Made by a program: the position numbers and the translations under genes. DNA of 64,000 nt from a virus (lineage: Duplodnaviria; Heunggongvirae; Uroviricota; Caudoviricetes), in IMG/VR virus record IMGVR_UViG_3300031555_002005; one strand, written 5' to 3'. The notes under the pieces are model-generated. The model made no database searches. It saw nothing but the letters and a program-made list of their open reading frames with translations, and was not told where the DNA came from. Shown here one piece after another: positions 8,626 to 44,903 of this stretch. Every line of letters starts with the position of its first letter. The stretch's first letter is position 1.

Positions 8626-9044
8626 TGAGCGAAAGAGAGAATTTTATTGTCGTCAATGGTCAAAAATATTATACCGGAACTGTTTTTCTGATTGATTTTC
8701 ATGGTAAGGTACAAGAGGCATCTTTTGTCTGCACTGTTGTCAAGACAAATAGAGTTCGATGTAAACTTGCTAACTCTTACTGGTTTATACATGCTGACGA
8801 TTTTCGCAAAAGAATTGTTGAGATCACAGATAAGGTTGATTCCAGTGTGCACATGCCCGTTACCAAAACAATGAAAGACACTGAGATTGGCAGCCTGTTT
8901 ATTGGCTGGCTGTGGTATATTTTTCTTATGGCAATTAGCACGATTTTTAAAAATGCAATTGGACTGTGGTGTTTTATTTCTTGGGTGTTTTTTACTTGGA
9001 GAGCTAAGAAAATAAAAGAGGAGGGGACTTACATTGAGTGGTAG
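8619..9044 (+). CDS. membrane protein (C-terminal TM helices)
   Basis: Hydrophobic C-terminus. Confidence 0.5.
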   Translation: MLMSERENFIVVNGQKYYTGTVFLIDFHGKVQEASFVCTVVKTNRVRCKLANSYWFIHADDFRKRIVEITDKVDSSVHMPVTKTMKDTEIGSLFIGWLWYIFLMAISTIFKNAIGLWCFISWVFFTWRAKKIKEEGTYIEW

Positions 9045-10008
9045 ACTTGAAAAAGAAAGACAAATCGAACAGCAGGTCATGAAAAAACTTGACTCTATGC
9101 CTTCTATCTTAACAGACTATTATTATAGTTTAATTGGTGCAGGCAAATCATATAGAACTGCAAAAGTATATATAGAAAATGTAATTCAGTTTGTAAAATT
9201 TACATTTGGAAAAAATATTAAAGAAGACTTTTATTCTAGTGTGAACGCAATCCATATCAATAGATATATTGCTTCTCTGAGAACAAAGACTGTAAAAGGA
9301 AAAACGGAGCGCACATCTGATAGTCACAAAACATTAAATTGGTCTTCTTTAAATTCGTTTTTTCAATTCTTGGTTCCAGATTATATTTCCACAAACCCTG
9401 TGGCAAATACAAAAAGACCCAAAATGAAAGATAATCCAAATGTTACATTCTTGGACACGGAAGAAATGGCAAAAATCTTTAAAAATGTTAAAGAAAAAGC
9501 GAATCCACGAATGTTAAATAGAGATATGTGCCTTTTAAAACTTGGGTTTGCTACGGGCTTACGTATTTCTGCAATAGTACAAATTGATATTGATGATTTA
9601 GATTTAAAACGTAATCAAATCAGAATTACAGAAAAGGGAGATCATGACGATTATGTGATTATAGGAGATAATCTTAAAGCGCAAGTTGAACTGTGGCTAA
9701 AAGACAGAGAGGAATATTTTAGTGATGTAAACAGTAATGCTCTGTTTGTTTCGCAAGAAAAGAATAGACTTAGCGCACGATCTGTTAAGGATTTAATGGA
9801 TAAATATACACTTGGCGCAACTGATAAAAAGGTTACACCTCATGTAATGCGTCACTCTTGTGCGACAAATTTGTATGAAAAAACTGGAGATATTTATCTG
9901 TGTGCAAGACAGTTACATCATAAAAATGTATCTACAACACAGAGATATGCTGAGCTGTCTAAAGAGAAACAGAAAAAGGCGGCGAATATTCTTGATGACA
10001 TGATTTGA
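9034..10008 (+). CDS. tyrosine recombinase/integrase (XerD-like)
   Basis: R...HxxR...Y catalytic residues (GLRISA, HVMRHSCAT, TQRYAE); GAGGAGGGG RBS; TTG start. Confidence 0.75.
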   Translation: MSGRLEKERQIEQQVMKKLDSMPSILTDYYYSLIGAGKSYRTAKVYIENVIQFVKFTFGKNIKEDFYSSVNAIHINRYIASLRTKTVKGKTERTSDSHKTLNWSSLNSFFQFLVPDYISTNPVANTKRPKMKDNPNVTFLDTEEMAKIFKNVKEKANPRMLNRDMCLLKLGFATGLRISAIVQIDIDDLDLKRNQIRITEKGDHDDYVIIGDNLKAQVELWLKDREEYFSDVNSNALFVSQEKNRLSARSVKDLMDKYTLGATDKKVTPHVMRHSCATNLYEKTGDIYLCARQLHHKNVSTTQRYAELSKEKQKKAANILDDMI

Positions 10009-10042
10009 CAAGAATATGATTATTCCAACAATTACAAATTGA

Positions 10043-10071
10043 CAAACACGTGTTCGCAATGTATAATATTC
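10043..10071 (+). promoter_or_regulatory. sigma-A-type promoter
   Basis: TTGACA-N17-TATAAT. Confidence 0.55.
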
Positions 10072-10090
10072 CACGAAGGGGTGGCAAACA

Positions 10091-11005
10091 ATGTATCAAT
10101 CTGAAATGAAAGAGGGTTTTATAAAAGACTATATGAGATCAAGGGTGGTTGCTCGAACGTCTTTATATAGTTTATTCAGAAAAACAGAACCATTTGAAGA
10201 AGAGAATAAAAAGGATTGCAGTCAGTTCAATCAAGATGAAGCTTTATCTATGTACACAAAATTTAAAGCAAAATCAATTTATGTGCTTCTTAATTATAAT
10301 ACAATTTTAAAAGCTTATTGTGCATGGAGACACTATTACCATAAAGAAAAAGTTACGGACTCATATGACAATACTACTATAGAATTACTGAAACCATGTG
10401 TCCCAGAAGATAGTAATAAGTTTTTATCAAGAGAAGAAATAATAGAAATAGAAGATCAATTATATAATTGGACCGACAAGGCAATTGTAGAGTGTTTATG
10501 GGAAGGTATTTCTGGACCAAGTATGATTGACTTGGTGAATATCAATAGATCTATGGTCGATTTTAAGGAAAAGGAAATGTACTTTTCAGACGGAAGAATA
10601 ATTGAATTAACTGATAGGTTATGTGAGCTTTTAAACAAGACATTTGATGAAATTGAGTATATGTGCTACGGAGAATCATTAAGAGTTAAAAAGCTTGTTG
10701 GAATTGGCAATCTATACAAAGAAAGAGATAATGCGCATGCAACAGATTCAAATGATAAATATTTCAGATGGGTGTATAGGAAAGTACAAAATTTTAGAGA
10801 TCATGTTGGTATCCCCGGACTAACCATGAAAAATATACACATATCTGGTATGTATCATTATTTGTGTCAAGGGATGCAAGAAACTGGGCTTGACCTGAAA
10901 AGCTTCTTGAAATCTCAAGATGGTGCGGAATTGGCTTGTAAATATGGTTTTCATTCAGATAGTTACGTAGATAATTTAACACACCGCTTTAAAGATTTTG
11001 TTTAA
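10091..11005 (+). CDS. hypothetical protein (304 aa)
   Basis: GAAGGGG RBS. Confidence 0.55.
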   Translation: MYQSEMKEGFIKDYMRSRVVARTSLYSLFRKTEPFEEENKKDCSQFNQDEALSMYTKFKAKSIYVLLNYNTILKAYCAWRHYYHKEKVTDSYDNTTIELLKPCVPEDSNKFLSREEIIEIEDQLYNWTDKAIVECLWEGISGPSMIDLVNINRSMVDFKEKEMYFSDGRIIELTDRLCELLNKTFDEIEYMCYGESLRVKKLVGIGNLYKERDNAHATDSNDKYFRWVYRKVQNFRDHVGIPGLTMKNIHISGMYHYLCQGMQETGLDLKSFLKSQDGAELACKYGFHSDSYVDNLTHRFKDFV

Positions 11006-22857: not shown

Positions 22858-22983
22858 GACGGTGTAGCTCAGTTGGAAGAGCAATAGCCTTTGTCAGATG
22901 CAGGCTTGCACTAATTCAGTTCGATTCTGAAGTTTGGCACCATAAGCTATGGGTCGAGAGTTCGAGCCTCTCCACCGTCACCA
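22858..22983 (+). tRNA. interrupted tRNA. A 57-nt anticodon loop (about 50 extra nt) contains a tRNA-like minihelix ending in CCA. Would be tRNA-Lys (UUU) if the insert is excised.
   Basis: Acceptor GACGGTG/CACCGTC; D-arm; anticodon stem ATAGC/GCTAT separated by 57 nt; T-arm GAGAG-TTCGAGC-CTCTC; CCA encoded. Confidence 0.55.
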
Positions 22984-23450: not shown

Positions 23451-23604
23451 ATCCCAGTAGCTCAGCTGGATAGAGCAACGGTCTTCGGGGAGTTCGTTAA
23501 AAGGTAAGATACTTTAGGATAAAACCTAAGGAGATTACAGTTCGAGTCTGTTGCTCCCCACCATAAACCGTAGGTCGGGGGTTCGAGTCCCTCCTGGGAT
23601 ACCA
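23451..23604 (+). tRNA. interrupted tRNA. An 87-nt anticodon loop (23483-23569) contains a nested tRNA-like element (23487-23563). Would be tRNA-Arg (UCU) if the element is excised.
   Basis: Acceptor ATCCCAG/CTGGGAT; D-arm GCTC..GAGC; anticodon stem ACGGT/ACCGT separated by 87 nt; T-arm GGGGG-TTCGAGT-CCCTC; CCA encoded. Confidence 0.55.
23487..23563 (+). ncRNA. nested tRNA-like element inside the anticodon loop (acceptor GGGGAGT/GCTCCCC, anticodon arm TTAGG-ATAAAAC-CCTAA, T-arm, CCA)
   Basis: Folded by hand; ends ACCA; flanked by CTTC and TAA, which would join into a 7-nt loop CTTCTAA. Confidence 0.4.
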
Positions 23605-23610
23605 AAATAT

Positions 23611-23745
23611 CGGGAACAGGTGGAATGGTATACACATCGGAACCATAACTGAGTTTTGATAAAAACTTGCCAACAGCAAATACGTGGACGTAAAATCCGA
23701 CGCTTTTGCAAGCATCCTTGGTTCGAATCCAAGGGTTCCCGACCA
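23611..23745 (+). tRNA. class-II-like tRNA with an extra stretch of about 47 nt (a 54-nt segment between the anticodon-stem strands)
   Basis: Acceptor CGGGAAC/GTTCCCG; anticodon stem TCGGA/TCCGA separated by 54 nt; long variable hairpin; T-arm CCTTGG-TTCGAAT-CCAAGG; CCA encoded. Confidence 0.4.
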
Positions 23746-25214: not shown

Positions 25215-25700
25215 ATGAATATTGAACAAGTAATTCTTTATAAAAGAATCGAAAAAGTACTTAAGAATTACCTAATAAATGACTTGGGTGATTCACAAAT
25301 GAAGAAAAAGGAAAGCTATTGTTTGAATTGTGGAGTTTCTATACCAAATAGAAATAAATATTGCTCAAACAAATGCCAACTAGATTTCCAATATAAAGAG
25401 TATATACAGAGATGGAAAAATGGGCTTGAAGATGGTATGAGAGGTGAATATCTTATATCAGTACACATTAGAAAATATTTAATGGAAAAGTTTGATAACA
25501 AATGCTCAAAATGTGGATGGGGAGAAATAAATCCTTATACCAAAAATGTACCACTAGAAGTCCATCATAAAGATGGAGATTATACCAATAATTCAGAAGA
25601 CAATCTTGACTTACTATGTCCAAATTGTCACTCATTAACAGAAACATATAAAGCTGCAAATAAAGGCAATGGAAGAAAAGATCGTAAAAAATACACATAA
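25215..25700 (+). CDS. HNH homing endonuclease
   Basis: EVHHKDGD...NLDLLCPNCH. Confidence 0.7.
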   Translation: MNIEQVILYKRIEKVLKNYLINDLGDSQMKKKESYCLNCGVSIPNRNKYCSNKCQLDFQYKEYIQRWKNGLEDGMRGEYLISVHIRKYLMEKFDNKCSKCGWGEINPYTKNVPLEVHHKDGDYTNNSEDNLDLLCPNCHSLTETYKAANKGNGRKDRKKYT

Positions 25701-28212: not shown

Positions 28213-28240
28213 TTGACAAATCAGAATTATATGATATAAT
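28213..28240 (+). promoter_or_regulatory. sigma-A-type promoter for the tRNA-like cluster
   Basis: TTGACA-N16-TATAAT, then the conserved element. Confidence 0.5.
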
Positions 28241-28269
28241 ACAAGCAGTTCAAGGGAACAGTACAAAAT

Positions 28270-28560
28270 TAATAAAGGCGCACACAGCAAATTTACTATA
28301 TGGTTAAAATTTTTTATGTTTGTGTTAAAAAATGAGAAGGTTCAAATCCTTTAAAAATTTCATGCGCCTTGACAAAAAAAGACACTAACAGCAACTTTAT
28401 TAACTATACAATTTGGGCTTGTAAATATTGTTAATAGTGTCTTGAATATGGGAACGTCCGGTGGCAGTAAATAAGTGCATGGAGTGGGCAGCACACACAG
28501 CAATTTTACTTAACAATTTCTGGAAAAAATTGACTCCTTGGTTCAACTCCGAGGGTTCCC
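28270..28560 (+). ncRNA. three hairpin-enclosed RNA units, each carrying a CACANACAGCAA(A)TTT motif
   Basis: 8-bp closing stems AAGGCGCA/TGCGCCTT, AAGACACT/AGTGTCTT, AGTGGG/CCCACT. T-arm-like GGTTCAAATCC inside unit 1. Confidence 0.35.
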
Positions 28561-28582
28561 AAAAATCCCACTAACTTAATAT

Positions 28583-28712
28583 GCGGAAGTAGCTCAGCTG
28601 GGAGAGCAATAGTATTTATTTAAAAATGTGTTTAGATTAACACTAACAGCAATTTTTATTTAAAGAAGAAGTTGGGGACTATGGGTCGTAGGTTCGAGCC
28701 CTACCTTCCGCA
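28583..28712 (+). tRNA. interrupted tRNA: 64-nt anticodon loop carrying the ACAGCAATTTTTA motif
   Basis: Acceptor GCGGAAG/CTTCCGC; D-arm GCTC-AGCTGGGA-GAGC; anticodon stem ATAGT/ACTAT separated by 64 nt; T-arm GTAGG-TTCGAGC-CCTAC. Confidence 0.5.
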
Positions 28713-28724
28713 TCAACTAAATAT

Positions 28725-28852
28725 GCCAGAGTAGCTCAGTTGGTAGAGCACGTATATATCAACCAACGTGGTATGAAAATTTCACGCACAGCAATTTTAA
28801 TGATTCTTGCCTTTTAAGCACGTTGTCGTGGGTTCGAGTCCCATCTCTGGCA
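28725..28852 (+). tRNA. interrupted tRNA: about 55 extra nt between the D- and T-arms carrying the ACAGCAATTTTA motif
   Basis: Acceptor GCCAGAG/CTCTGGC; D-arm GCTC-AGTTGGTA-GAGC; T-arm GTGGG-TTCGAGT-CCCAT. Confidence 0.45.
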
Positions 28853-28862
28853 AACTTTATAT

Positions 28863-28981
28863 GGCGCAATGGTGTAATGGTAGCACAACGTAATAATTGA
28901 GGTTTGTTAAAATCTTAAACTGCAATTTTACAATGCATGATCACGCCGTAGGTTGAAGTTCGATTCTTCATTGCGTCTCCA
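28863..28981 (+). tRNA. interrupted tRNA-like: about 45 extra nt carrying a CTGCAATTTTA motif; CCA encoded
   Basis: Acceptor GGCGCAA/TTGCGTC; D-arm GTGT-AATGGTA-GCAC; T-arm TGAAG-TTCGATT-CTTCA. Confidence 0.4.
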
Positions 28982-28997
28982 AATTAACAATTAAATA

Positions 28998-29118
28998 AAG
29001 GCACATACAGCAATTTTAAATTCTGAAGCAGCCATTTTGCTTTGTAGTATAACTGGTTAGTACGCAGGACTGATAATCCTGAAATGCTGGTTCGAGTCCA
29101 GTCTTTAAAAATGTGCCT
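28998..29118 (+). ncRNA. 9-bp-stem-enclosed unit: the motif plus a tRNA-like 3' three-quarter (anticodon arm CAGGA-CTGATAA-TCCTG, T-arm)
   Basis: Outer stem AAGGCACAT/ATGTGCCTT; no canonical acceptor pairing found. Confidence 0.35.
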
Positions 29119-29353
29119 TGCAATTAAAAGAGAGACGAACAGCAAATTGATTGAATTAAAGAAGATAGAAAACTTATTTACTAATTATTGTTGTTTTATT
29201 TATGTATTAGATTATTTATCACTTTTAAGTCTCTCGAATAAATAAAATCTCCAAAGACGCTAACAGCAATGTACGACTTGACTGCAAATCAATAATCGTA
29301 AAATGCGTCTTGGATTTTAGTAATAAAATCAAAACTTTTAGGAGGAACAAAAA

Positions 29354-30907
29354 ATGGAATTTATGAGTGCAGTTAGACAGACTCTCAATAATGAGTACAA
29401 TGTGTCTATCACTGAGAACGGCGCAGTTGGTTATAGAACCACTGGCAAGGAGCTGCTTGACCTGAACTTTGCAGTAGCATCTCTTCGTAAGATGACCGAT
29501 GCAGAAGTCGCAAAGAGATTCAAGAAGGCTTTTTGTGAAGATCAGGTTCTCGCAATGAAGTGGCTGTTCTACGCAAGAGACGTTCGTGGTGGTTTGGGTG
29601 AGCGTAGACTGTTCAGAGTTGTTCTGGCAGATCTGGTACAGTCCAATCCTGAAATGGTTATTCCTGTCATGAATCTGATTCCTGAGTATGGTCGCTACGA
29701 TGACCTGTGGTGTCTGTTAGATGACAAGGAAGCAGCTAATGTGATTTATCAGATTGTTGATAATCAGCTGAAGCGTGACTGGGAAAACATGGCTTCAAAG
29801 AAGCCTATTTCTATTCTGGCAAAGTGGATGCCTTCTATCAATGCATCTTCTGCTAAGACCAAGGAATACGGAAAGAAGCTGTGCAAGGCTCTGAAGATGA
29901 CTGAGCGTGAATACCGCAAGGCTCTGAGCAAGCTTCGTGCATATCTGGATGTTGTTGAAGTTAAGATGTCCGATAAGAACTGGTCTGCAATTAAGTATGA
30001 AGCAGTTCCTTCTCGTGCAAATCTGATTTACAACAGCGCATTCCTGAGAAATGACGAAGCAAGACGTAGAGAATATCTTGGCCAGCTTGAAAAGGGCGAG
30101 ACTAAGATTAACGCATCTACTCTGTTCCCTCACGATATTGCTCATAAGTATACTAACAACTCATGGGGTCGTGGTCTAAAGGCAAAGGATGCAACCATTG
30201 AAGCTCTGTGGAAGGCGCTACCTGACACTGTAAATGGCTGTGGTAATACTATTGTTGTTGCTGACGGCTCTGGTAGTATGACTTGCACTGTTGACAATCA
30301 CTCTCGTGTTACTGCACTTGAAGTTGCAAACGCACTGGCAATTTACTTTGCTGAGCACTCTTCTGGTCAGTTCAAGGATAAGTACATTACTTTCTCTGAA
30401 AGACCTCAGTTTGTTGACTTCAGCAATTGTAAGACTCTGCATGACAAGCTACACACTGCACTAATGCATAATGAAGTTGCAAATACTAACATCGAAAAGG
30501 TGTTTGATTTGATTCTGACTTCTGCGGTCAATAACCATATGCATCAGGAAGATCTTCCTCAGAACATCCTGATCATCTCTGATATGGAGTTTGATAGCTG
30601 TGCAACTTCTGGCAATGTTGATCGTTGGAGCTACCGTAACAGACCTACTCAGAAGCTATTCGATGTTATCGCTCAGAAGTACGCAAGAGCAGGTTACAAG
30701 ATGCCTCGTCTGGTATTCTGGAATGTAAACTCTCGCACTGGTACTATTCCTGTAAAGGAAAATGACCTTGGTGTGGCACTGGTCAGCGGTTTCTCTGTAA
30801 ACGTTGCCAAGATGGTCATGAGTGGCAAGACTGATCCTTTCGAGTGTCTGCTTGAAACTCTGAACTCTGAGAGATATGCTCCTGTTGAGGAAGCTTTAAA
30901 TCAGTAA
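29354..30907 (+). CDS. vWA-domain protein (DUF2828-like; possibly a Ro60/TROVE-related RNA-binding protein)
   Basis: MIDAS motif VVADGSGSM in the C-terminal half; helical N-terminal domain; GGAGG RBS. The family assignment is from memory. Confidence 0.5.
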   Translation: MEFMSAVRQTLNNEYNVSITENGAVGYRTTGKELLDLNFAVASLRKMTDAEVAKRFKKAFCEDQVLAMKWLFYARDVRGGLGERRLFRVVLADLVQSNPEMVIPVMNLIPEYGRYDDLWCLLDDKEAANVIYQIVDNQLKRDWENMASKKPISILAKWMPSINASSAKTKEYGKKLCKALKMTEREYRKALSKLRAYLDVVEVKMSDKNWSAIKYEAVPSRANLIYNSAFLRNDEARRREYLGQLEKGETKINASTLFPHDIAHKYTNNSWGRGLKAKDATIEALWKALPDTVNGCGNTIVVADGSGSMTCTVDNHSRVTALEVANALAIYFAEHSSGQFKDKYITFSERPQFVDFSNCKTLHDKLHTALMHNEVANTNIEKVFDLILTSAVNNHMHQEDLPQNILIISDMEFDSCATSGNVDRWSYRNRPTQKLFDVIAQKYARAGYKMPRLVFWNVNSRTGTIPVKENDLGVALVSGFSVNVAKMVMSGKTDPFECLLETLNSERYAPVEEALNQ

Positions 30908-31006: not shown

Positions 31007-31073
31007 GTGGAGTCCTGGGTAAGACTTAAAACTGCCCATTCAGACATTAACAGCAAACAATAATTACTTGGTT

Positions 31074-31148
31074 GCGAGGTTAGCTTAGCTGGTCTAAAGC
31101 AATAGATGTGAAAATCTATGATCACTGGTTCGAACCCAGTACCTTGTG
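31074..31148 (+). tRNA. tRNA-like with a non-canonical (6- or 8-nt) anticodon loop; identity undetermined; no CCA
   Basis: Acceptor GCGAGGT/ACCTTGT with G-U pairs; D-arm GCTT..AAGC; ATAGA-TGTGAAAA-TCTAT; T-arm ACTGG-TTCGAAC-CCAGT. Confidence 0.4.
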
Positions 31149-31176
31149 TTTAAGTGATAATGTCTAGTTTCTATAT

Positions 31177-34476: not shown

Positions 34477-34505
34477 GACAAAATGGTAAAATGTGTTATA
34501 ATAAC
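34477..34505 (+). promoter_or_regulatory. sigma-A-type promoter
   Basis: TTGACA-N16-TATAAT, then the conserved element. Confidence 0.55.
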
Positions 34506-34535
34506 AATACAAATTTAATGAAGGGAGTATACATA

Positions 34536-35630
34536 GTGACATATCTTGACTACGCTGCCACAACGCCAATATGTGATGCAGCACAGCAAACAATAATTAA
34601 GTATTTAAATTACTTTGGCAACCCATCAAGTTCTCATGAGTTTGGAAGACAATCCAGACTGTTAATCGAAGATGCACGTGAAAGAATTGCCCAATGTATC
34701 AACGCAGATCCTAGTGAAATTTACTTCACGTCTGGAGGTTCTGAAGCAAATACACTTGCGTTAAACAATAGGAGATATTCAGCGTCTTCAAAATTTGAGC
34801 ATCATTCTGTGGTGTCAAATTGGCCAAAAATTTCTATTACAAAAGATGGATTTATCAAGGTACATAAACTAAATAATATGATCTCAGAATGGTGGGAGGT
34901 TCCATTTGATGTTATGTCTTGCATGTATGTGAACAATGAAATTGGAACAATACAGCCAGTAAAAGAGCTATCTACTGTAGCGCATAGATATGGTATTTTA
35001 CTTCACACTGACGCAGTTCAGGCAATGCCTTATGTACACATAGACGTTAAAGATTTGGGTTGCGATATGTTATCTGCAAGTGGGCATAAGTTTGGTGCAC
35101 CAAAAGGCATAGGATTTTTATATGCAAATTCTCGTTCAAGAATCAAGCCGATCATTAATGGAGGCAAGCAAGAAAACTCTATGCGCCCAGGTACTGAAAA
35201 TATTTTAGGCATTCTGGCCATGGCTTCGGCGCTTGAAGACGCTGTGGAACATATGGATGAACGTAATGAGCGCATTAAATCTTTAAGAGACAGTCTGCTT
35301 GATAAGTTACTTAAAATTGATGGAGCGCATCTTAATGGCTCACTTGAAAATCGCATTCCAGGCAACATCAATATCAGATTTGATGGGGTTTACGGTTCAA
35401 GACTAGTTACATTGTGCAGTTTATATGGAGTTTATATTTCCGCAGGATCTGCATGCAACGAAGGCACCACTGAGCCAAGCCACGTGCTTAAAGCAATTAA
35501 TCTATCAGACGAAGAAGCATTAAGTAGCGTAAGAATTACTTTGGGGCATCAAACTACCGAAGAAGATGTTAACATAGCAGCAGATATTATTACAGCACTA
35601 GTTAAAAGGATTCGTTCAGATGAATCTTAA
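34536..35630 (+). CDS. cysteine desulfurase (NifS/IscS-like, class V aminotransferase)
   Basis: SGHKFGAPKG PLP-lysine motif; GAAGGGAG RBS with GTG start at 34536. The track start at 34491 overlaps the promoter. Confidence 0.75.
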   Translation: MTYLDYAATTPICDAAQQTIIKYLNYFGNPSSSHEFGRQSRLLIEDARERIAQCINADPSEIYFTSGGSEANTLALNNRRYSASSKFEHHSVVSNWPKISITKDGFIKVHKLNNMISEWWEVPFDVMSCMYVNNEIGTIQPVKELSTVAHRYGILLHTDAVQAMPYVHIDVKDLGCDMLSASGHKFGAPKGIGFLYANSRSRIKPIINGGKQENSMRPGTENILGILAMASALEDAVEHMDERNERIKSLRDSLLDKLLKIDGAHLNGSLENRIPGNINIRFDGVYGSRLVTLCSLYGVYISAGSACNEGTTEPSHVLKAINLSDEEALSSVRITLGHQTTEEDVNIAADIITALVKRIRSDES

Positions 35631-37743: not shown

Positions 37744-38520
37744 ATGACAGAAGAAAGACTGAAATTCATTCAGCCAATTTTAGACACATTTGAGAATGAA
37801 GATATTAAAGAATTTGCAGTTGTTTTGCTTGGCGATTTGCCTGATTATATTTGGCATGTAGGCGCAAGCTCCACTGGCAAATATCACCCAGCATATTCGC
37901 TTGGAGAAATGGGTTTGATGAGACATCAAGTTGCAGTAGTTAGATTTTTAAATTTCTTTTTGGAGTTAGAACAATATAATAGCAAGTTAACAAGCAGAGA
38001 AAGGGATCTTATTAGACTTTCTGGACTTGTGCACGATGGGCGCAAATCAGGATCTCAGGAAGATTATGAAAAGTCCAAGTACACCAGATTTAATCATCCT
38101 ATTCTGATGGCAGACGTAATTAGAAGTTTTGATGGAAAGTATTTAACTCATGAAGAAATTGAAATGGTAGCCGATACCATTAGCAAACATATGGGACAAT
38201 GGAACGAAGACAAAAAAACTGGTGTTGAGCTTCCTAAGCCTAATAATAAGTTTGCCAGAATGGTTCATGTTGCAGACTATCTTGCATCTAGAAAATGCTT
38301 GACTATGGACTTTGATGGATATTTCATGGTGCAAGAAAATGTTGAATTTGATGAGAATTATACACTACCATTCGGTAAGCATTCAGGTAAACGTCTAATT
38401 GATGTGTATAGATCTGCGCCTGACTATATTGCGTGGATGGAAGAAAACATTAAAAAGCCTGATATTTTGAATATGATTAAGGCAATGAAAGAACATTTGA
38501 ATAAGGAGAATAAAGAATGA
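37744..38520 (+). CDS. HD-domain phosphohydrolase-like protein
   Basis: H...HD (GLVHDGRK) pattern. Confidence 0.45.
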   Translation: MTEERLKFIQPILDTFENEDIKEFAVVLLGDLPDYIWHVGASSTGKYHPAYSLGEMGLMRHQVAVVRFLNFFLELEQYNSKLTSRERDLIRLSGLVHDGRKSGSQEDYEKSKYTRFNHPILMADVIRSFDGKYLTHEEIEMVADTISKHMGQWNEDKKTGVELPKPNNKFARMVHVADYLASRKCLTMDFDGYFMVQENVEFDENYTLPFGKHSGKRLIDVYRSAPDYIAWMEENIKKPDILNMIKAMKEHLNKENKE

Positions 38521-40123: not shown

Positions 40124-41509
40124 ATGGCTTATACAGCATTTATTACAAGAATTAAGAATCTGCGTACACACCCTAAGGCGGATCGACTGCAGATGGGTGA
40201 GTGCTTTGGTAACACTGTAATTGTCTCTCTGGAATACGAGGACAACCAGCTTGGCATTTACTTCCCTTCTGATGGACAGATTAGCACTGCATTTGCAGAA
40301 GCAAATAACCTGCTTCGCAAGAAGGATGAAAACGGCAATAACATTGGCGGTTACATGGATCCCGACAAGCGCAACGTCACTGCTATTAAGCTTCGTGGAG
40401 AAAAGTCTGATGGCCTGTTCCTGCCTCTGAAGTCTCTTGAGCCTTTTGGTGACATTACCACTCTGCGTGAGGGTGACCGAATTGATAACTTTAATGGACA
40501 TGAGATTTGCTGCAAGTATGTACCTTTTAAGCGTGAACGTACTGCCGCAGGTGGAGCAGGAAAGCGCATTAAGCGTAGAGCTAAGAGAAGCATTGCACCT
40601 CTGTTTTATGAGCATATGGACACTGAGCAGCTCGCCTACAATCTGGCAGCTTTTAAGCCCGGTGACGAGATTGAAATCACTCTAAAGATGCATGGCACTT
40701 CTCAGCGAACTGCACACCTACCTGTGTTTAAGGACTACAAGCGCACAATCTGGGACAAACTATTCCGTCGTGAAGGTACTCCTGTTTATGATTGGGGTTA
40801 CGTCTCTGGCACTCGTCGTACTGTTCTAGAGAATTTTGAAGGTGGATATTATGGATCTAACGAGTTCCGTGAAGCACATTCTAAGTTCTTTGAGGGCAAG
40901 CTGTGGAAGGGCGAAGAGGTCTACTACGAGGTGGTTGGTTTCACTCATACTGGCGCACCTATTATGTCTACGGCAGACAATAAGAAGCTGAACGACAAGG
41001 AGTTTGTTAAGCAGTATGGAAAGACTACTACTTTCTCTTATGGTTGTGCCCCTGATGGTGTAAATTCCGCAGATGGAGTTATTCCTCAGTCTGATATCTA
41101 CGTTTACCGTATGACAATGACCAATGAAGATGGTGATGTTGTCGAGTACACTCCTGATTTCATGCGCTATCGTTGTGAGCAGATGGGTGTTAAGACTGTC
41201 CCTGTGATGTGGAAGGGCACTATTCCTTACGCAGATTGGCTTGAAGCTAACACGTGGGAAAGCGCAGGGCATTATGCAATTACTCGTGCAGAAAAGTACT
41301 ATGATGGTCCCGACCCTATTGGCAAGACTCATGTCCGTGAAGGCGTTGTAGTTCGTATTCTGAACCGTCCTAAATTCTGTGCATACAAGCATAAGAACTG
41401 GTCTTTCAAGGCTCTTGAAGGAATTGTTAAGGTTGAAGCTGAGGCTCCTGATATGGAAGAAGCCGATGGCATTAATGAGGAAGTGATGACTGATGAATTT
41501 TCACAGTGA
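40124..41509 (+). CDS. RNA ligase (Rnl2/Rnl5-type nucleotidyltransferase) fused to an N-terminal EMAP/Trbp111-type tRNA-binding OB domain
   Basis: N-terminus HPKADRL...SDGLF resembles a tRNA-binding OB fold. Ligase motif I LKMHGTS (KxHG), motif IV EGVVVR, motif V KHKNWSFK. Confidence 0.7.
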   Translation: MAYTAFITRIKNLRTHPKADRLQMGECFGNTVIVSLEYEDNQLGIYFPSDGQISTAFAEANNLLRKKDENGNNIGGYMDPDKRNVTAIKLRGEKSDGLFLPLKSLEPFGDITTLREGDRIDNFNGHEICCKYVPFKRERTAAGGAGKRIKRRAKRSIAPLFYEHMDTEQLAYNLAAFKPGDEIEITLKMHGTSQRTAHLPVFKDYKRTIWDKLFRREGTPVYDWGYVSGTRRTVLENFEGGYYGSNEFREAHSKFFEGKLWKGEEVYYEVVGFTHTGAPIMSTADNKKLNDKEFVKQYGKTTTFSYGCAPDGVNSADGVIPQSDIYVYRMTMTNEDGDVVEYTPDFMRYRCEQMGVKTVPVMWKGTIPYADWLEANTWESAGHYAITRAEKYYDGPDPIGKTHVREGVVVRILNRPKFCAYKHKNWSFKALEGIVKVEAEAPDMEEADGINEEVMTDEFSQ

Positions 41510-42302
41510 TGAATGGATCATGCGGAATGTTCGAGAGCACTACAACGAGGCTCTCGAACACTTCCCCGAAGATAGAATTGTAGGTATCTTTTATCAGGGC
41601 AGCGGTAACTACGGCCTTGACTATGAAGGTTCTGATGTAGACACCAAGCTGATTGTCACGCCAACCTTTGAAGATATTGCAATGAATAAAAAGGCAGTAA
41701 GTACAACTCATATCAGAGAGAATGAAGAGCACATCGATTTTAAGGATATTAGACTCTATATCCAGACTTTCAGAAAGCAAAACTTGAACTTCCTAGAAAT
41801 CCTGTTTACTAAATATGCAATTATCAATCCTATGTATAAAGATGAATGGGATAGACTTGTAAAGGCTCGTGAGAAAATTGCACGCTATGCACCTGTACAG
41901 GCTATTAAGTCTATGAAGGGCATTGCAAAAGAAAAGTATCATGCAATGGAACATCACTATCCTGCACGAATGGCATGGATTGAGAAGTTTTCTTACGATC
42001 CGAAACAACTGCATCATCTACTGAGAGTTAATGAATATATCAGCAGATACATTGACGGCGAATCATATGAAGATTGCTTGATTTCAAAAATGCCAGACTA
42101 TTTACAGTCAGTAAAACTTGGTTTTCACAACCTGGATGATGCTCGCATGATTGCTAATTGGGCTATTGGCTGTATTGATAAAATGTGCGATAAGTATCTA
42201 GAGACTTGTTCAACTGAAGTTGATAAAGATGTTGATGTTCTACTTGATGATGTGCAGTACAACATTATGAAGATTGCTATTAAGAAAGAAATTGGTGATT
42301 AA
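41493..42302 (+). CDS. Pol-beta-superfamily nucleotidyltransferase
   Basis: GSGNYGLDYEGSDVDTKL NTase signature. Confidence 0.6.
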   Translation: MNFHSDEWIMRNVREHYNEALEHFPEDRIVGIFYQGSGNYGLDYEGSDVDTKLIVTPTFEDIAMNKKAVSTTHIRENEEHIDFKDIRLYIQTFRKQNLNFLEILFTKYAIINPMYKDEWDRLVKAREKIARYAPVQAIKSMKGIAKEKYHAMEHHYPARMAWIEKFSYDPKQLHHLLRVNEYISRYIDGESYEDCLISKMPDYLQSVKLGFHNLDDARMIANWAIGCIDKMCDKYLETCSTEVDKDVDVLLDDVQYNIMKIAIKKEIGD

Positions 42303-42303
42303 A

Positions 42304-43200
42304 ATGAACAGACCTAGTTTAATTTTACTTGTCGGAATTCCCGGCTCAGGCAAAACTACATACGCAGAAAAATATATTAAAGAGAATCCCAATACAGTAC
42401 ATCTTTCCTCCGACAAGATTCGTGAAGAACTTTGGGGTAATGAAGCTACTCAGGGCGACAACAACAAAGTGTTTTCTCTGATGCAGTCTAGAGCAATTGA
42501 AGCACTGAATAACGGACAGTCTGTGGTATATGACGCTACGAACATTACAAGAAAAGACAGATCTTACATTATCACTCTTTGCCCTAAGTTTGCTAAGATT
42601 GAGTGCCATATTATTTGGGCACCTATTGAGACTTGCATCGAGAGAGACGCTGCCAGAGAACGCACTGTTGGCAAGGAAGTCATTGATAGAATGCTTAAGC
42701 GATTCCAGGCACCTTATTATGATGAAGGGTTTGATGGTATCTATATTCGTTATTCTGATGACAATTTTAATGCAAAAGAATACAGTAAAAAGATAGTTAT
42801 GAACATGGATATCCCTCATGATAACCCTCATCACACTTTGAATATTTTAGATCATTGTGCTGAAGCAGGATCATATTTTTATGAAAGAGGTCAGTATGAC
42901 GAAGTGTGGGTGGCAGCTATGTATCATGACATAGGAAAACCATACGTAAAAGCATTTGTTGATAGCAAAGGTAATCCTTGTGAGAATGCTCATTACTACC
43001 AGCATCAATGTTTGGGTTCATATATGTATTATGGAATGACTAGTGAAATTGGTGGTACTAGTGACACATGGGTAAAAATTGCTTGGCTGATTTCCACACA
43101 TATGGATCCTTATCTAAATACGAAATATTACAATAGACTTCCTGCTTATCTAAAGAAACAGGTAGATTTGCTTCACGAGGCGGACAGGAATGCACATTAA
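42304..43200 (+). CDS. pnk: polynucleotide 5'-kinase fused to a C-terminal HD-domain phosphoesterase (RNA end-healing enzyme)
   Basis: Walker A LLVGIPGSGKTTYA as in T4 Pnk; C-terminal H...HD motifs (HHTLNILDH, MYHDIGK). Confidence 0.7.
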   Translation: MNRPSLILLVGIPGSGKTTYAEKYIKENPNTVHLSSDKIREELWGNEATQGDNNKVFSLMQSRAIEALNNGQSVVYDATNITRKDRSYIITLCPKFAKIECHIIWAPIETCIERDAARERTVGKEVIDRMLKRFQAPYYDEGFDGIYIRYSDDNFNAKEYSKKIVMNMDIPHDNPHHTLNILDHCAEAGSYFYERGQYDEVWVAAMYHDIGKPYVKAFVDSKGNPCENAHYYQHQCLGSYMYYGMTSEIGGTSDTWVKIAWLISTHMDPYLNTKYYNRLPAYLKKQVDLLHEADRNAH

Positions 43201-43260
43201 GTAATTAAAAATAAAAGATGCATAGACGATACAAAATTAATGTAAAATTGGAGTGGTTCT

Positions 43261-44049
43261 ATGCCAAATAAAATTGATAAAAAAACAGAAAAAGATATAA
43301 TTGATTTATATAATAATGGATACGGGACTATGGAAATATCACAAAAATGTGAAATTCATAGAGCAACTGTTCAAAGAATTTTAAAAAGAAATAATATAGA
43401 TTTACGTAAACGTACACCTGTACATTATGACATTCATTTCTTTGACGAATACAATGAAAATAGTTGTTATTGGGCAGGGTTTATTGCAGCAGATGGATAT
43501 GTGAGATCCGACAGAGCAGCTGTAACAATACATTTAGCAAGTGTAGATTATGAGCATTTGTTAAAACTTGCCAAATTAACCAATTATGAAGGGAACGTCA
43601 AACTCAATAAGAATGATTGTTATATTACATTTGCTGGCAAATGGTTTCAAGATGCTCTAGATAAAAATTTTAATATACGTCCAAATAAAACATTTGATAT
43701 TACAATTCCAGACAAAATTCCAGAAGATATGGTTAAACATTTTATTCGTGGTTACTTTGATGGCGATGGTAGTGTAACTCATACAAACAATTATTTACGC
43801 ATTAATTTCACTTCTGGATCTGAAACTATGCTTCAACAGATTATGAATTTTGTATATAACAATAATATATTAGTTCGAAATAATACTGGAATGCCACCAA
43901 TCCATCAATATGTAATTAACTATTCTTGTAGTGTTGCATATAAAATTCTAGACATATTATATGGATGTTCATCAGACTTAACAAGACTGGATAGAAAATA
44001 TCAATTATATTTAAGTTATAAAAAATCTAAAAGTCCATTGGCAAATTAA
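43261..44049 (+). CDS. LAGLIDADG homing endonuclease with N-terminal HTH
   Basis: GFIAADGYV and GYFDGDGSV motifs. Confidence 0.75.
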   Translation: MPNKIDKKTEKDIIDLYNNGYGTMEISQKCEIHRATVQRILKRNNIDLRKRTPVHYDIHFFDEYNENSCYWAGFIAADGYVRSDRAAVTIHLASVDYEHLLKLAKLTNYEGNVKLNKNDCYITFAGKWFQDALDKNFNIRPNKTFDITIPDKIPEDMVKHFIRGYFDGDGSVTHTNNYLRINFTSGSETMLQQIMNFVYNNNILVRNNTGMPPIHQYVINYSCSVAYKILDILYGCSSDLTRLDRKYQLYLSYKKSKSPLAN

Positions 44050-44069
44050 TTTGATTGGAGAATAATATT

Positions 44070-44903
44070 ATGGATACAAGTGAACTAGCAAAAAGAATGA
44101 AAGACTATGAGTCTGTGCCAAAAGCAAGGCTGATGAGGCGTTGTCCCGTGGCATGTCGTATTGACGGAAAGGCTCACCATAGCTTTACAAAAGGATTCAA
44201 AAGACCGTTTGACGAAGTTTATATTAAGTCGATGCAGAAAACAGCAAAATATTTATGTGAAAATGTACAAGGTGTTGTGCTGTCATATCAGCAGTCAGAT
44301 GAAATTACTTTGATTTTAATTGACTATAAAGAATTCAACACATCTCCATATTTTGACTACGAAATTCAAAAGCTGTGTTCAATTCTAGCTTCTATGGCAA
44401 CTATGGCGTTCAATAAGTTTTTTGCAAACGAATGTTGTCAGTGGTTTGAAAATAACATTGATTGGAGTGACCTAGACGTTGTCGCAGCAGATGAAGATAT
44501 CAAGAAGTTGTTTAATGCCTATACCAAGGCTTGTGAAAAAGGTGCAATGTTCGATGCTAGAGTATTTAATATCCCTAAGGAAGAAGTCATGAACCTTCTA
44601 TATTGGAGACAGTTAGATGCTACTAGAAACAGCATTCAAATGGTTGGGCAGGCAAACTTCTCTCATAATCAGCTTCACGGTAAGAACTGTAGCGATATTC
44701 AGGATATGTTAATGTTCGAAAAGGGCATCAACTGGAACGATTATCCGACTCACCTAAAGCGTGGCAGCTGTTGTATTAAGAAACCTTTCAAGATTAATGA
44801 GGGCACCGAGCAGGAAACAGTTCGTAACAAATGGGTAATTGACACTGAGATACCTATTTTCACGCAAGATAAAGATTATGTAAATAAATTGATTTTTATT
44901 TAA
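44070..44903 (+). CDS. Thg1-like protein (tRNA 3'-5' nucleotidyltransferase / tRNA 5'-end repair)
   Basis: RIDGKAHHSFTKGFKRPFD matches the Thg1 signature RIDGRNFHKFT...FEKPND. Confidence 0.65.
   Translation: MDTSELAKRMKDYESVPKARLMRRCPVACRIDGKAHHSFTKGFKRPFDEVYIKSMQKTAKYLCENVQGVVLSYQQSDEITLILIDYKEFNTSPYFDYEIQKLCSILASMATMAFNKFFANECCQWFENNIDWSDLDVVAADEDIKKLFNAYTKACEKGAMFDARVFNIPKEEVMNLLYWRQLDATRNSIQMVGQANFSHNQLHGKNCSDIQDMLMFEKGINWNDYPTHLKRGSCCIKKPFKINEGTEQETVRNKWVIDTEIPIFTQDKDYVNKLIFI

Follow-up and report, generated by a model that had tools for sequence, protein, structure and literature searches.

The window analysed here, a stretch of 64,000 nt from a virus of the Caudoviricetes, carries upstream from a gene for a vWA/Ro-like protein a cluster of tRNA-like genes and hairpins that all contain the same short motif. 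The question raised by this locus is what the motif does and which factor recognizes it; an endonuclease, a ligase and the adjacent vWA/Ro-like protein were all proposed in the initial annotation.

The initial annotation described nine motif copies on one strand behind a single promoter, and both statements were confirmed. The pattern GRCRC-NN-AC(A/T)GCAA was found in nine copies, all on the + strand, between the promoter at 28213-28240 and the gene at 29354. Exact ACAGCAA starts in the cluster at 28284, 28388, 28497, 28646, 28788, 29007, 29139 and 29263 (+), and the variant ACTGCAA is represented by a single copy starting at 28919 (+). When up to 3 mismatches were allowed, the 17-nt pattern gave 10 matches in 64 kb against 2.95 expected, a number reached by 0/100 shuffles; 7 of these 10 matches are located inside 28279-29018. 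Exact ACAGCAA occurs in the window 18 times on the + strand and 4 times on the - strand, with an expectation of 4.4 per strand. Two more copies are located outside the range first described, at 23673 and 31050. The features are as follows.

23612..23741, + strand: distant copy in a class-II-like tRNA-like gene; ACAGCAA 23673-23679 in the anticodon region; CCA encoded
28213..28240, + strand: promoter TTGACA-16-TATAAT with TG in the spacer; 12/12 match to the sigma-70 consensus
28272..28373, + strand: unit 1, open; P1 28275-28281 / 28364-28370; ACAGCAA 28284-28290
28376..28446, + strand: unit 2, open hairpin; P1 28379-28385 / 28437-28443; ACAGCAA 28388-28394
28450..28560, + strand: unit 3, tRNA-like, capped P1 28476-28479 / 28491-28494; ACAGCAA 28497-28503
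28583..28712, + strand: unit 4, interrupted tRNA, capped P1 28628-28632 / 28639-28643; ACAGCAA 28646-28652
28725..28852, + strand: unit 5, interrupted tRNA-Lys(UUU); insert 28753-28807 (55 nt); ACAGCAA 28788-28794
28863..28981, + strand: unit 6, tRNA-like, capped P1 28899-28905 / 28910-28916; ACTGCAA 28919-28925
28998..29120, + strand: unit 7, open; P1 28998-29004 / 29113-29119; ACAGCAA 29007-29013
29127..29238, + strand: unit 8, open; P1 29130-29136 / 29229-29235; ACAGCAA 29139-29145
29251..29314, + strand: unit 9, open hairpin in the 5' leader of the protein gene; P1 29254-29260 / 29305-29311; ACAGCAA 29263-29269
29354..30907, + strand: Ro60-like protein gene; DUF2828 + DUF7788/vWA; PHROG 850 'RNA-binding protein'
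31040..31150, + strand: extra copy just 3' of the gene; ACAGCAA 31050-31056 in the leader of a tRNA-like gene, 31074-31148

The motif forms one half of a module that consists of a 7-bp helix (P1) and the single-stranded ACAGCAA following it. The 5' strand of this handle reads P1, two variable bases, the single-stranded heptamer ACAGCAA and a U-rich stretch, and the last P1 pairs are usually G-R-C-R-C / G-Y-G-Y-C. Two circularly permuted topologies were distinguished. In the open one (units 1, 2, 7, 8 and 9) P1 carries the 5' and 3' ends of the RNA and encloses the cargo, as in YrlA; in the capped one (units 3-6) P1 is closed by a loop and set inside a tRNA body, so that the handle is part of the anticodon arm in a tRNA that is otherwise normal and the RNA ends at the acceptor stem. 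The cargoes are pieces of tRNA, namely T-arms, anticodon-like hairpins or whole tRNAs: tRNA bodies are present in units 3-7, a T-arm in unit 1 and only hairpins in units 2, 8 and 9. A CRISPR-like array was rejected because the stems differ among units and covary inside each unit.

Among the open units, the cargo of unit 1 contains a T-arm-like hairpin (GAAGGTTCAAATCCTTT), with a weak Rfam tRNA match across the T-arm. Unit 1 is matched by model R1 with 41.8 bits (E 5.7e-8) and unit 8, whose cargo is an A/U-rich hairpin, with 24.9 bits (E 1e-3), both units being outside the training set of the model; orthologues were found in loci L001 and L003 for unit 1 and in L001, L003, L004 and L005 for unit 8. 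Unit 2 (56.5 bits) is itself a member of the training set; its folding z-score is -3.6, and 0/200 shuffles were as stable. The cargo of unit 9 (45.1 bits with R1) is the anticodon-like hairpin TTGA CTGCAAA TCAA, and a unit 55-100 nt ahead of the start codon is the copy most widely kept across loci. In unit 7, P1 encloses a tRNA-like body with D-arm, anticodon arm (CAGGA CTGATAA TCCTG) and T-arm, in which an A/U helix continuous with P1 replaces the acceptor stem; Rfam gives a tRNA match of 48.8 bits at 29041-29110 (gathering 29) with the acceptor stem broken. Over 113 nt this unit shares 74.6% identity with an unannotated unit of Bacillus phage vB_BcoS-136, in which a promoter also precedes the units. 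The promoter-then-first-unit layout recurs in L001 and L003, and the copy after the gene, in a tRNA-like leader, is an arrangement repeated in L050 and L053.

The capped units required some revision of the initial annotation. Of the region 28270-28560, read there as hairpin-enclosed units, the part at 28450-28560 is instead a tRNA-like RNA with an acceptor stem (unit 3: GGGAAC/GTTCCC, plus a T-arm), in which a conserved 12-nt loop caps P1 and an intact anticodon-like hairpin, AATTT CTGGAAA AAATT, lies 3' of the motif; no CCA is encoded, and the loops of its orthologues read CTGCAAA, CTGGAAA, CTTGAAA or CTTCAAA. Of the three tRNA-like genes proposed, those at 28583-28712 and 28725-28852 (+) were called as tRNA by Rfam, and the one at 28863-28981 was called only in orthologues (L004 3349-3466, L005 3406-3523). 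The insertions had been placed between the D- and T-arms, which is imprecise: they either interrupt the 5' strand of the anticodon stem or come at its end.

In unit 4 an insert of about 57 nt follows this strand (ATAGT ... GTTGGGG ACTAT; Pro-type loop), and the Rfam tRNA alignment (51.1 bits, gathering 29) contains a 61-nt insertion in the anticodon arm. The P1 hairpin was retained in the folding centroid, orthologue loops read (A/T)TGGGGA, and CCA is not encoded. The insert of unit 5 splits the strand itself (CG / insert / TGC CTTTTAA GCACG); here Rfam gave 47.9 bits (gathering 29) with a 66-nt insertion in the anticodon arm, and again CCA is not encoded. In unit 6, which encodes CCA, the insert lies in the anticodon stem and the loop restored in the window would be of 8 nt; the restored arm of its L001 orthologue is GCGGC TTTGGGA GCCGC, of Pro type. 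P1 of unit 6 covaries among orthologues (GAGGTTT/AAATCTT, GAGTCTT/AAGACTT, GAGTTTT/AAGGCTC).

The distribution of the module was analyzed in related phages. It was found on the gene's strand and adjoining the gene in about 160 further loci, with protein identities of 30-84%, and also beside homologues of only 30-41% identity in cultured Bacillus, Listeria, Staphylococcus, Enterococcus and Mycobacterium phages. In 79 viral loci, successive 250-nt bins upstream from the gene contained 113, 86, 55 and 43 exact copies of ACAGCAA on the gene's strand and 0-2 on the opposite strand; the 250 nt 3' of the gene contained 15. In 87 further loci, 82/85 model matches were on the gene's strand. In these 85 matches, which come from loci left out of training, P1 pairing was kept in 99.8% of cells, with compensatory changes at all 7 pairs; 0/500 shuffles reached the observed value and slid controls gave 35-55%. 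Capped P1 stems averaged 5.7 bp, against 3.9 bp in shuffles. The core was nearly invariant in the same matches (A85 C84 A85 G85 C85 A80 A84), as was a G on the 3' side of P1 (81/85). Since the compared sequences are related by descent, these counts overstate the number of independent events. No unit was found near some distant homologues (L064, L082, L083 and FelixO1-like phage UAB_Phi87). In a motif-only scan of viral contigs, the retrieved piece lacked a DUF2828 gene for about half of the single matches; by our own rough estimate, chance would give about this number for the pattern in a collection as large as this, so that exclusivity of the motif to DUF2828 loci is not demonstrable.

This distribution bears on two other explanations. 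It could be a processing signal, a stem plus ACAGCAA(U)n at which a host or phage RNase cuts the transcript, the linkage to the gene being due to co-transcription only. A single transcript holding all units, the near-invariant G flanking the 3' side of the stem and the single-stranded motif with U-rich sequence after it are in line with such a site. We consider it quite improbable: a site for a host RNase would hardly be conserved without change from phages of Clostridia to those of Bacillus, Listeria, Staphylococcus and Mycobacterium and yet follow a single family of phage proteins; the ordinary tRNAs of the same arrays lack the module; and in the capped units the motif is internal to the tRNA body, where a cut would destroy the RNA. 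Still less credible is a small ribozyme that cleaves or splices itself, or a selfish element that spreads by insertion among tRNA genes and is functionless for the phage. The module does occur in many different tRNA bodies and positions, and homing endonuclease genes are dotted across the tRNA region of the window, but it has only about 12 conserved positions and one helix, is far below the size of a group I intron and matches no ribozyme or intron family of Rfam in the window or the cluster. Between the U-rich sequence after ACAGCAA and the A-rich sequence before the P1 3' strand, no second helix (P2) with a constant register was found; pairing fractions were 0.3-0.55, the background level for A/U-rich sequence, and the P2 parsed by hand in units 4 and 7 was rejected as a general feature on this basis. 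The strict linkage of strand and position to one protein gene over deep divergence argues instead for selection on a function with the Ro-like protein.

The only Pfam families matched by this protein are DUF2828 and DUF7788, apart from a weak match to VWA_2; Pfam TROVE was not matched, and PHROGs assigned PHROG 850. A MIDAS-type DGSGS is present at residues 304-308, with D304, S306 and S308 invariant in 69 diverse homologues. In the PDB, the top five Foldseek matches were all Ro60/TROVE proteins, full length, with E values of 7e-8 to 9e-6, from a poor AlphaFold model built on a shallow alignment (mean pLDDT 58.5, TM about 0.3). A profile of the 69 homologues against the PDB returned Ro60 first, with a marginal E of 0.014 and for the vWA part only; nothing was found with the single sequence or a shallow profile against solved structures. 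The homologue of phage LeBron is annotated as 'Ro-like RNA binding protein'. The DUF2828/PHROG 850 family is abundant: public data contain 6,955 clusters of it at 50% identity, and 706 genomes of cultured phages encode a homologue, among them Listeria P100-like, Staphylococcus, Enterococcus, Bacillus, Campylobacter, Vibrio and FelixO1-like phages and mycobacteriophages. Its annotation is at best 'RNA-binding protein', with no known RNA partner.

Of the three recognizing factors first proposed, the Ro-like protein is favoured by the conservation of its gene as a neighbour and by the structural matches to Ro60/TROVE; no result of our tests supported a recognition signal for an endonuclease or ligase, though genes for an RNA ligase and a polynucleotide kinase are present in the phage. 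Because the handle adjoins a Ro60-like gene in hundreds of phages, it is likely to be the RNA partner of the Ro-like protein, and the module is most likely the partner of the DUF2828/PHROG 850 protein in general; we infer this protein-RNA link from gene neighbourhood and from analogy. Y RNA genes are known to adjoin Ro60, and the RNAs have a conserved 5'-strand motif at a stem-loop junction and show tRNA mimicry (PMC4201824); in one phage, two Y-like RNAs are located upstream from the Ro60 gene (PMC12135203). On balance we favour, with some reservation, a Y-RNA-like RNA family with a handle bound by the adjacent Ro-like protein, in a phage with tRNA-repair genes. The cluster would then be one transcription unit yielding first a set of Y-RNA-like small RNAs and then the mRNA of a Ro60-like protein (TROVE-like ring plus vWA). 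Each RNA would combine the common handle with a different tRNA-derived cargo, and the handle would be the putative binding site of the protein, like the 5'-strand GGUCCGA / GNCGAA of known Y RNAs. Binding to the leader copy (unit 9) could allow the protein to regulate its own synthesis.

Resemblance to the YrlA RNAs of Ro60/Rsr (RF02553; Chen et al. 2014, PMC4201824) is found at several levels: these RNAs too are encoded beside a Ro-type gene, the product of which has the ring-plus-vWA form predicted for the window protein, on the same strand and sometimes serially, pair their 5' and 3' ends in a terminal stem that opens next to a conserved 5'-strand motif (as in the open units 1, 2, 7, 8 and 9) and carry a tRNA-like cargo with T- and D-arms. 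In LeBron, a unit with the variant GCAGCAA directly 3' of the 'Ro-like' gene encloses a YrlA-like tRNA mimic, which is scored by the Rfam YrlA model at 39.8 bits (E 1.7e-7). Against the favoured reading, the motif is unlike the known Ro60 sites (GGUCCGA in animals, GNCGAAN0-1G in bacteria): ACAGCAA follows GRCRC, whereas the YrlA motif is GNCGAA(N)G, and CGAA arises only where the two variable bases happen to be GA. The window units were not detected by the Rfam YrlA model; the best RF02553 score in the window, 25.1 bits against a gathering score of 69, runs from the T-arm of one tRNA into the D-arm of the following one, and the weak YrlA matches in the cluster are artefacts bridging two adjacent tRNAs. 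With Rfam, at gathering score for the window and at E up to 10 for the cluster, only tRNA was found. Other differences are that the window protein is a DUF2828/DUF7788 protein outside Pfam TROVE, that the phage arrays reach nine units with bare anticodon-like hairpins among the cargoes, and that some handles are inserted into unpermuted, otherwise genuine tRNA genes ending at the acceptor stem. A family with this module is absent from Rfam, and no paper describing one was found in the literature.

The Ro60 of Thermus phage phiLo with its Yrl1/Yrl2 RNAs (PMC12135203; PDB 9KOP, 9L5Y) is likewise a phage Ro-type protein with small RNAs just upstream, and figures among the top structural matches of the window protein. 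The phiLo protein, in contrast, is recognisably TROVE, and its RNAs are two simple stem-bulge-stem RNAs with a CGAA motif, for which no tRNA bodies or anticodon-like loops are reported.

The term 'interrupted tRNAs' used in the initial annotation proved apt. Removal of the 55 nt at 28753-28807 from 28725-28852 leaves a textbook tRNA-Lys(UUU) with a perfect 5-bp anticodon stem, the core of which, joined in silico, is nearly identical to uninterrupted viral tRNA-Lys genes. The split stem is kept in orthologues through compensatory changes (CG+TGC/GCACG, CG+AGC/GCTCG, CG+GGG/CCCCG, ACG+GC/GCCGT, GCG+GC/GCCGC), and the predicted junction of the joined 73-76-nt tRNA would read, for example, ...GAGCACG joined to TGCCTTTTAAGCACG... 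Among 61 cargo loops of 7 nt, 39 fit YU-NNN-R-N; anticodon-loop-like sequences included CUUUUAA (12 times), CUUGAAA, CUGUUAA, CUGAUAA and UUUGGGU. Canonical anticodon loops were counted in 72/147 motif-bearing tRNAs, a heuristic and noisy count by which the splicing reading is not separated from the mimic reading. Two further approaches were abandoned: deletion of every insert followed by ARAGORN, which is too permissive, many deletions yielding some 'tRNA', and a search for insert-free alleles with a degenerate pattern, which was not specific enough and picked up ordinary tRNAs of many viruses; by comparison with these, joined unit 5 proved to be a standard tRNA-Lys.

The capped modules could be true tRNA introns, the stem plus ACAGCAA marking the insert for excision by protein enzymes and the ligase and kinase-phosphatase rejoining the halves; the Ro-like protein would possibly recruit the excision enzyme, and the free hairpins would be degenerate copies or would regulate by titrating the factor. 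The near-perfect tRNA features and the covarying split stems fit genes that would work as tRNAs after excision just as well as they fit mimics. Other points in its favour are the many canonical loops (CUUUUAA, CUGUUAA, UUUGGGA) and the enzymes encoded in the window, an RNA ligase, a kinase-phosphatase (polynucleotide kinase) and a weakly matched RlaP-like nucleotidyltransferase. We nevertheless regard this explanation as unlikely. The module is also carried by RNAs that have no tRNA body, and by unit 3, which has an intact anticodon-like hairpin even without excision. Joining would produce loops of 8 nt in unit 6 of the window and in the unit 5 orthologue of L003, and a Gly-like group would give AAGCCAA, without U33. 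CCA, which is found in the working tRNAs of these phages, is encoded by only 19/150 motif-bearing tRNA-like genes (13%) against 138/187 ordinary tRNAs of the same loci (74%; Fisher 4e-31); in the window it is encoded by 15/16 ordinary tRNAs and is absent from units 3-5. The distances from module to junction are variable (5-14 nt and 8-13 nt), and no splicing endonuclease was seen among the ORFs scanned.

The known tRNA introns (archaeal/eukaryal with a bulge-helix-bulge; bacterial group I) are similarly inserted in the anticodon arm, and their removal restores a canonical tRNA; in archaea they also occur at non-canonical positions, including the anticodon stem. The window inserts differ in being of about 55-60 nt, without bulge-helix-bulge or group I core, and in bearing a protein-type handle shared with free-standing RNAs. 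An archaeal-type intron was rejected on junction geometry, the two flanks facing each other at one three-way junction with no bulge-helix-bulge, and a group I intron because 55 nt are too few and no catalytic core is present. A more specific version, to which we give rather little credence, is that the capped modules are a new class of protein-dependent phage tRNA introns, the insert with its Ro-like handle being excised and the halves resealed by the phage ligase, kinase and RlaP-like enzymes. If this were true, the phage tRNAs would be inactive and nuclease-resistant until released by the Ro-like ribonucleoprotein, in what would be, for the bacterial world, the first case of tRNA splicing other than self-splicing.

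The favoured reading, a Y-RNA-like family with a Ro-like partner, is also in keeping with the rarity of encoded CCA among the motif-bearing tRNA-like genes and with the resemblance of cargo loops to anticodon loops. For this reading the genomic company is informative. Besides the enzymes already named, the window encodes a Thg1-like enzyme; an RNA ligase gene is near the DUF2828 gene in 16/79 loci, RtcB is near it in Listeria phage LP-048, and LeBron encodes a ligase plus a kinase. Phage tRNA repair systems (T4 Pnkp/Rnl1; the Salmonella RtcB/Rsr/Y RNA operon, PMC7790460; RlaP, PMC12776372) have similar company; these, unlike the present array, are defined by their enzymes, and no RNA component with an ACAGCAA motif is described for them. 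The tRNA-repair enzymes beside the array point to a role in the conflict between the phage and host tRNA-cutting defences. More tentatively, the ribonucleoprotein may present tRNA look-alikes to tRNA-binding enzymes in this conflict, either by drawing off host anticodon nucleases as a decoy or by serving the repair enzymes of the phage as a platform.

These findings provide the very common DUF2828/PHROG 850 family with a precise candidate RNA partner, a 7-bp stem plus ACAGCAA, which is easy to mutate and to search for and is carried by phages that can be grown in the laboratory. Module-bearing units would also account for the odd or missed 'tRNAs' returned by tRNA finders in these phages. The Ro60/Y-RNA theme would be widened to a single handle, permuted in two ways, that is joined to anticodon hairpins, T-arms and entire tRNA genes in arrays with as many as nine members.

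The roughly 1.1 kb that separate the promoter from the downstream gene contain no credible ORF. One promoter, nine motif-bearing RNA units (units 1-9) and one gene are arranged there on a single strand; the features named individually below are:

28213-28240, + strand: promoter, a perfect sigma-70-type sequence (TTGACA, 16-nt spacer with TG, TATAAT)
28450-28560, + strand: unit 3
28583-28712, + strand: unit 4
28725-28852, + strand: unit 5
28863-28981, + strand: unit 6
28998-29120, + strand: unit 7
29354-30907, + strand: DUF2828 gene, 517 codons

The initial annotation had described nine copies of a shared motif on one strand, and this was confirmed: there are eight copies of the heptamer ACAGCAA and one of its variant ACTGCAA, all on the + strand, and the 17-nt pattern matches at 10 places in the window where 2.95 would be expected, with none of 100 shuffles giving as many. 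Elsewhere in the window, two additional copies were found, at 23673 and 31050, the latter directly after the gene.

Comparison of 286 distinct clustered copies from related loci gave the consensus a-a-a-G-R-C-R-C-N-N-ACAGCAA-y-y-U-u-a, in which the two C positions are C in 87% and 86% of the copies. The 5' strand of P1, a 7-bp helix, consists of the bases preceding the heptamer; P1 and the single-stranded ACAGCAA together constitute the handle, and what an open P1 encloses is the cargo. An alignment of 67 simple units showed compensatory changes in six of the seven pairs. Because these units had been chosen for pairing, P1 was retested on independent loci: a covariance model built on the alignment was searched against 87 loci outside the training set and yielded 85 matches, of which 82 share the neighbouring gene's strand. 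Pairing was present in 99.8% of cells and two-sided changes occurred in all seven pairs; values as high as these arose in none of 500 shuffles, and pairing fell to 35-55% when the partner strand was slid. The handle is a covarying stem with a nearly invariant heptamer (A85 C84 A85 G85 C85 A80 A84 among the 85 matches), and a G directly follows the 3' strand of P1 in 81 of them. A second helix in fixed register was tested and was unsupported.

When searched over the 64-kb window, the model recovered exactly units 1, 2, 7, 8 and 9, with no other match at E < 0.1. In these units P1 is open, its strands lying 40-110 nt apart with the cargo enclosed. In units 3-6 P1 is capped: both strands lie directly upstream of the heptamer and are closed by a loop. 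Capped stems have a mean length of 5.7 bp, against 3.9 bp in shuffled controls, reach at least 7 bp in 56 of 139 cases (about 5 expected) and covary among orthologues (e.g. GAGGTTT/AAATCTT, GAGTCTT/AAGACTT, GAGTTTT/AAGGCTC). The open type has its termini at the handle, as in YrlA, and the capped type at the acceptor stem; they represent one design in two circularly permuted forms. Unit 3 and its orthologues carry a capped stem with a conserved 12-nt G-rich loop, e.g. ATGGAGTGGGCA and AATCGACGGTGG, and a conserved TCCGGTGGCAG in the 5' region; no partner or role was found for the G-rich loop or for TCCGGTGGCAG.

The cargoes are derived from tRNA. Units 4, 5 and 7 pass the Rfam tRNA threshold (51.1, 47.9 and 48.8 bits, respectively). 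The insert of unit 5 interrupts the anticodon stem within its 5' strand (CG / 55 nt / TGC CTTTTAA GCACG), and removal of 28753-28807 leaves a core nearly identical to uninterrupted viral tRNA-Lys(UUU) genes; among orthologues of this split-stem unit the stem halves stay complementary while their sequences differ, with anticodons UGU, GUU, UCU, UGA and GUC. Unit 4 has a Pro-type loop and its insert follows an intact 5' strand; unit 3 comprises an acceptor stem and T-arm, with an intact anticodon-like hairpin after the module; in unit 7 an A/U helix running into P1 replaces the acceptor stem of a tRNA-like body. The inner hairpin of simple hairpin units often has an anticodon-type 7-nt loop (CUUUUAA twelve times, also CUUGAAA, CUGUUAA, CUGAUAA and UUUGGGU), and 39 of 61 seven-nt loops fit YU-NNN-R-N.

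RNA-repair genes are present in the neighbourhood, together with an HD-domain protein gene and a homing endonuclease gene:

37744-38520: HD-domain protein gene
40124-44903: RNA-repair block, with genes for an RNA ligase (PHROG 968, E 9e-66), an RlaP-like nucleotidyltransferase, a polynucleotide kinase-HD phosphatase fusion and a Thg1-like enzyme
43261-44049: LAGLIDADG homing endonuclease gene, between the kinase and Thg1-like genes

The near-perfect tRNA halves that form the exons, together with phage genes for the ligase, the kinase-HD phosphatase fusion, the Thg1-like enzyme and the weakly matched RlaP-like protein (E 0.0019, below the Pfam cut-off; RlaP enzymes were recently shown to aid the restoration of badly damaged tRNAs, PMC12776372), are what splicing of the interrupted tRNAs would lead one to expect. 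We nevertheless consider splicing unlikely, as RNAs that have no tRNA body contain the module too, unit 3 requires no splicing, joining would in some cases give an 8-nt loop or one without U33, the junctions show no bulge-helix-bulge and no intron family was matched. Moreover, only 19 of 150 distinct motif-bearing tRNA-like genes encode CCA, whereas 138 of the 187 ordinary tRNAs in these loci do so (Fisher, 4e-31); within the window, 15 of 16 ordinary tRNAs have it, but units 3, 4 and 5 do not. That the interrupted tRNAs act as tRNA mimics, a reading compatible with splicing, appears reasonably probable.

Two more interrupted tRNAs in the window, 22858-22980 and 23451-23601 (Rfam, 55.8 and 52.4 bits), carry an insert of another kind, in the anticodon loop. 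It resembles a mini tRNA, with an acceptor-like stem, a T-arm CAGTTCGAKTCTG and a 3' CACCA; 23487-23563 is called a tRNA by ARAGORN. The flanks would form CTTT/../TAA (Lys UUU) and CTTC/../TAA (Arg UCU), and both host tRNAs encode CCA and lack ACAGCAA. It seems possible that RNase P and 3' processing excise this insert and that the phage ligase seals the ends. A comparable long tRNA match lies in a related locus (L001, 937-1079). Many homing endonuclease genes are spread across the tRNA region (GIY-YIG at 12072 and 17548, HNH at 25215 and 27323), and 1208-2467 and 9034-11005 hold a reverse transcriptase gene and two tyrosine-recombinase-type genes.

The protein encoded by the gene matches DUF2828 and DUF7788 in Pfam, with a weak vWA match, and belongs to PHROGs family 850, 'RNA-binding protein'. 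Its AlphaFold model is poor (mean pLDDT 58.5, shallow alignment); the five best solved-structure matches of this model are all Ro60/TROVE, aligned over the full length (E 7e-8 to 9e-6): a Thermus phage phiLo protein (two entries), Deinococcus Rsr, human Ro60 and Xenopus Ro60. A PDB profile search with 69 diverse homologues ranked Ro60 first, at an E of only 0.014 and over the vWA part only. These matches, the MIDAS-type DGSGS invariant among homologues and the label 'Ro-like RNA binding protein' given to a homologue by mycobacteriophage annotators lead us to treat the protein as Ro60-like in predicted architecture, an assignment short of established TROVE membership.

Co-occurrence of the units with this gene is deep. 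Across 79 viral loci with homologues 53-84% identical to the protein, exact ACAGCAA copies on the gene's strand numbered 113, 86, 55 and 43 in successive 250-nt bins upstream, against 0-2 on the opposite strand, and 15 more lay in the 250 nt downstream. The closest homologues in bacterial assemblies, from gut Clostridia (among them Clostridiales bacterium CCNA10, AP018533.1, about 1.01 Mb, locus L281), show a like unit arrangement. They come from Oscillospiraceae and Lachnospiraceae; one lies within a complete chromosome, which suggests a prophage and gut Clostridia as hosts of the phage in the window. At 30-41% identity, homologues occur in 706 cultured phage genomes, and units adjoin the gene in all Gram-positive and mycobacterial phage examples inspected:

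Bacillus phage vB_BcoS-136: nine units, interspersed with its tRNAs, unannotated
Bacillus phage Skywalker: several units
Listeria phage LP-048: three units upstream of the gene
Enterococcus phage VRE9_1: one unit, 99 nt upstream
Staphylococcus phage S-CoN_Ph7: three units directly downstream
Mycobacteriophage LeBron: three units directly downstream

No clear unit copy was found in a FelixO1-like phage, and no upstream copy in three distant viral loci. In LP-048, the DUF2828 gene is preceded, at a distance of about 1 kb, by a ROOL RNA match (RF03087; L275, 1469-2020; 90 bits, slightly below the gathering score of 99.1), and an RtcB ligase gene lies about 1.3 kb downstream. A class V aminotransferase (cysteine desulfurase-like) gene, at 34491-35630 in the window and with a homologue that immediately follows DUF2828 in 24 of 79 related loci, may be related to tRNA thiolation.

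In the middle unit of LeBron (variant GCAGCAA), a T-arm, a closed acceptor-like hairpin and a D-arm lie within the stem; Rfam scores them as YrlA-like (39.8 bits at an E of 1.7e-7, short of the gathering score), and the module is thereby tied directly to the known tRNA-mimicking Y RNA class. Y RNA genes adjoin Ro60. The terminal stem of a Y RNA bears on its 5' strand a conserved motif, which reads GGUCCGA in animals and GNCGAAN0-1G in bacteria, and bacterial and phage Y RNAs also possess a tRNA-like domain (PMC4201824). Structural work has been published on one phage Ro60 that has a pair of Y-like RNAs upstream (PMC12135203). The RNAs described here follow a like logic, but with another motif and a protein of a different family; new are arrays with as many as nine units, cargoes consisting of nothing but an anticodon-like hairpin, and the capped topology, in which the handle is inserted in an unpermuted tRNA gene. 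No paper that deals with these RNAs or with what DUF2828 does came up in full-text literature searches. The feature is both real and widespread, is undescribed as far as these searches reach, and is best filed as a variant within the Ro60/Y-RNA kind.

The Ro60-like protein would bind the handle as its putative site, and the leader copy may let it feed back on its own mRNA. More speculatively, enzymes that bind tRNA might be offered look-alikes by the particle, which would then serve as a decoy against host anticodon nucleases or as a repair platform. The feature supplies a candidate binding site open to testing, with cultured carrier phages at hand.
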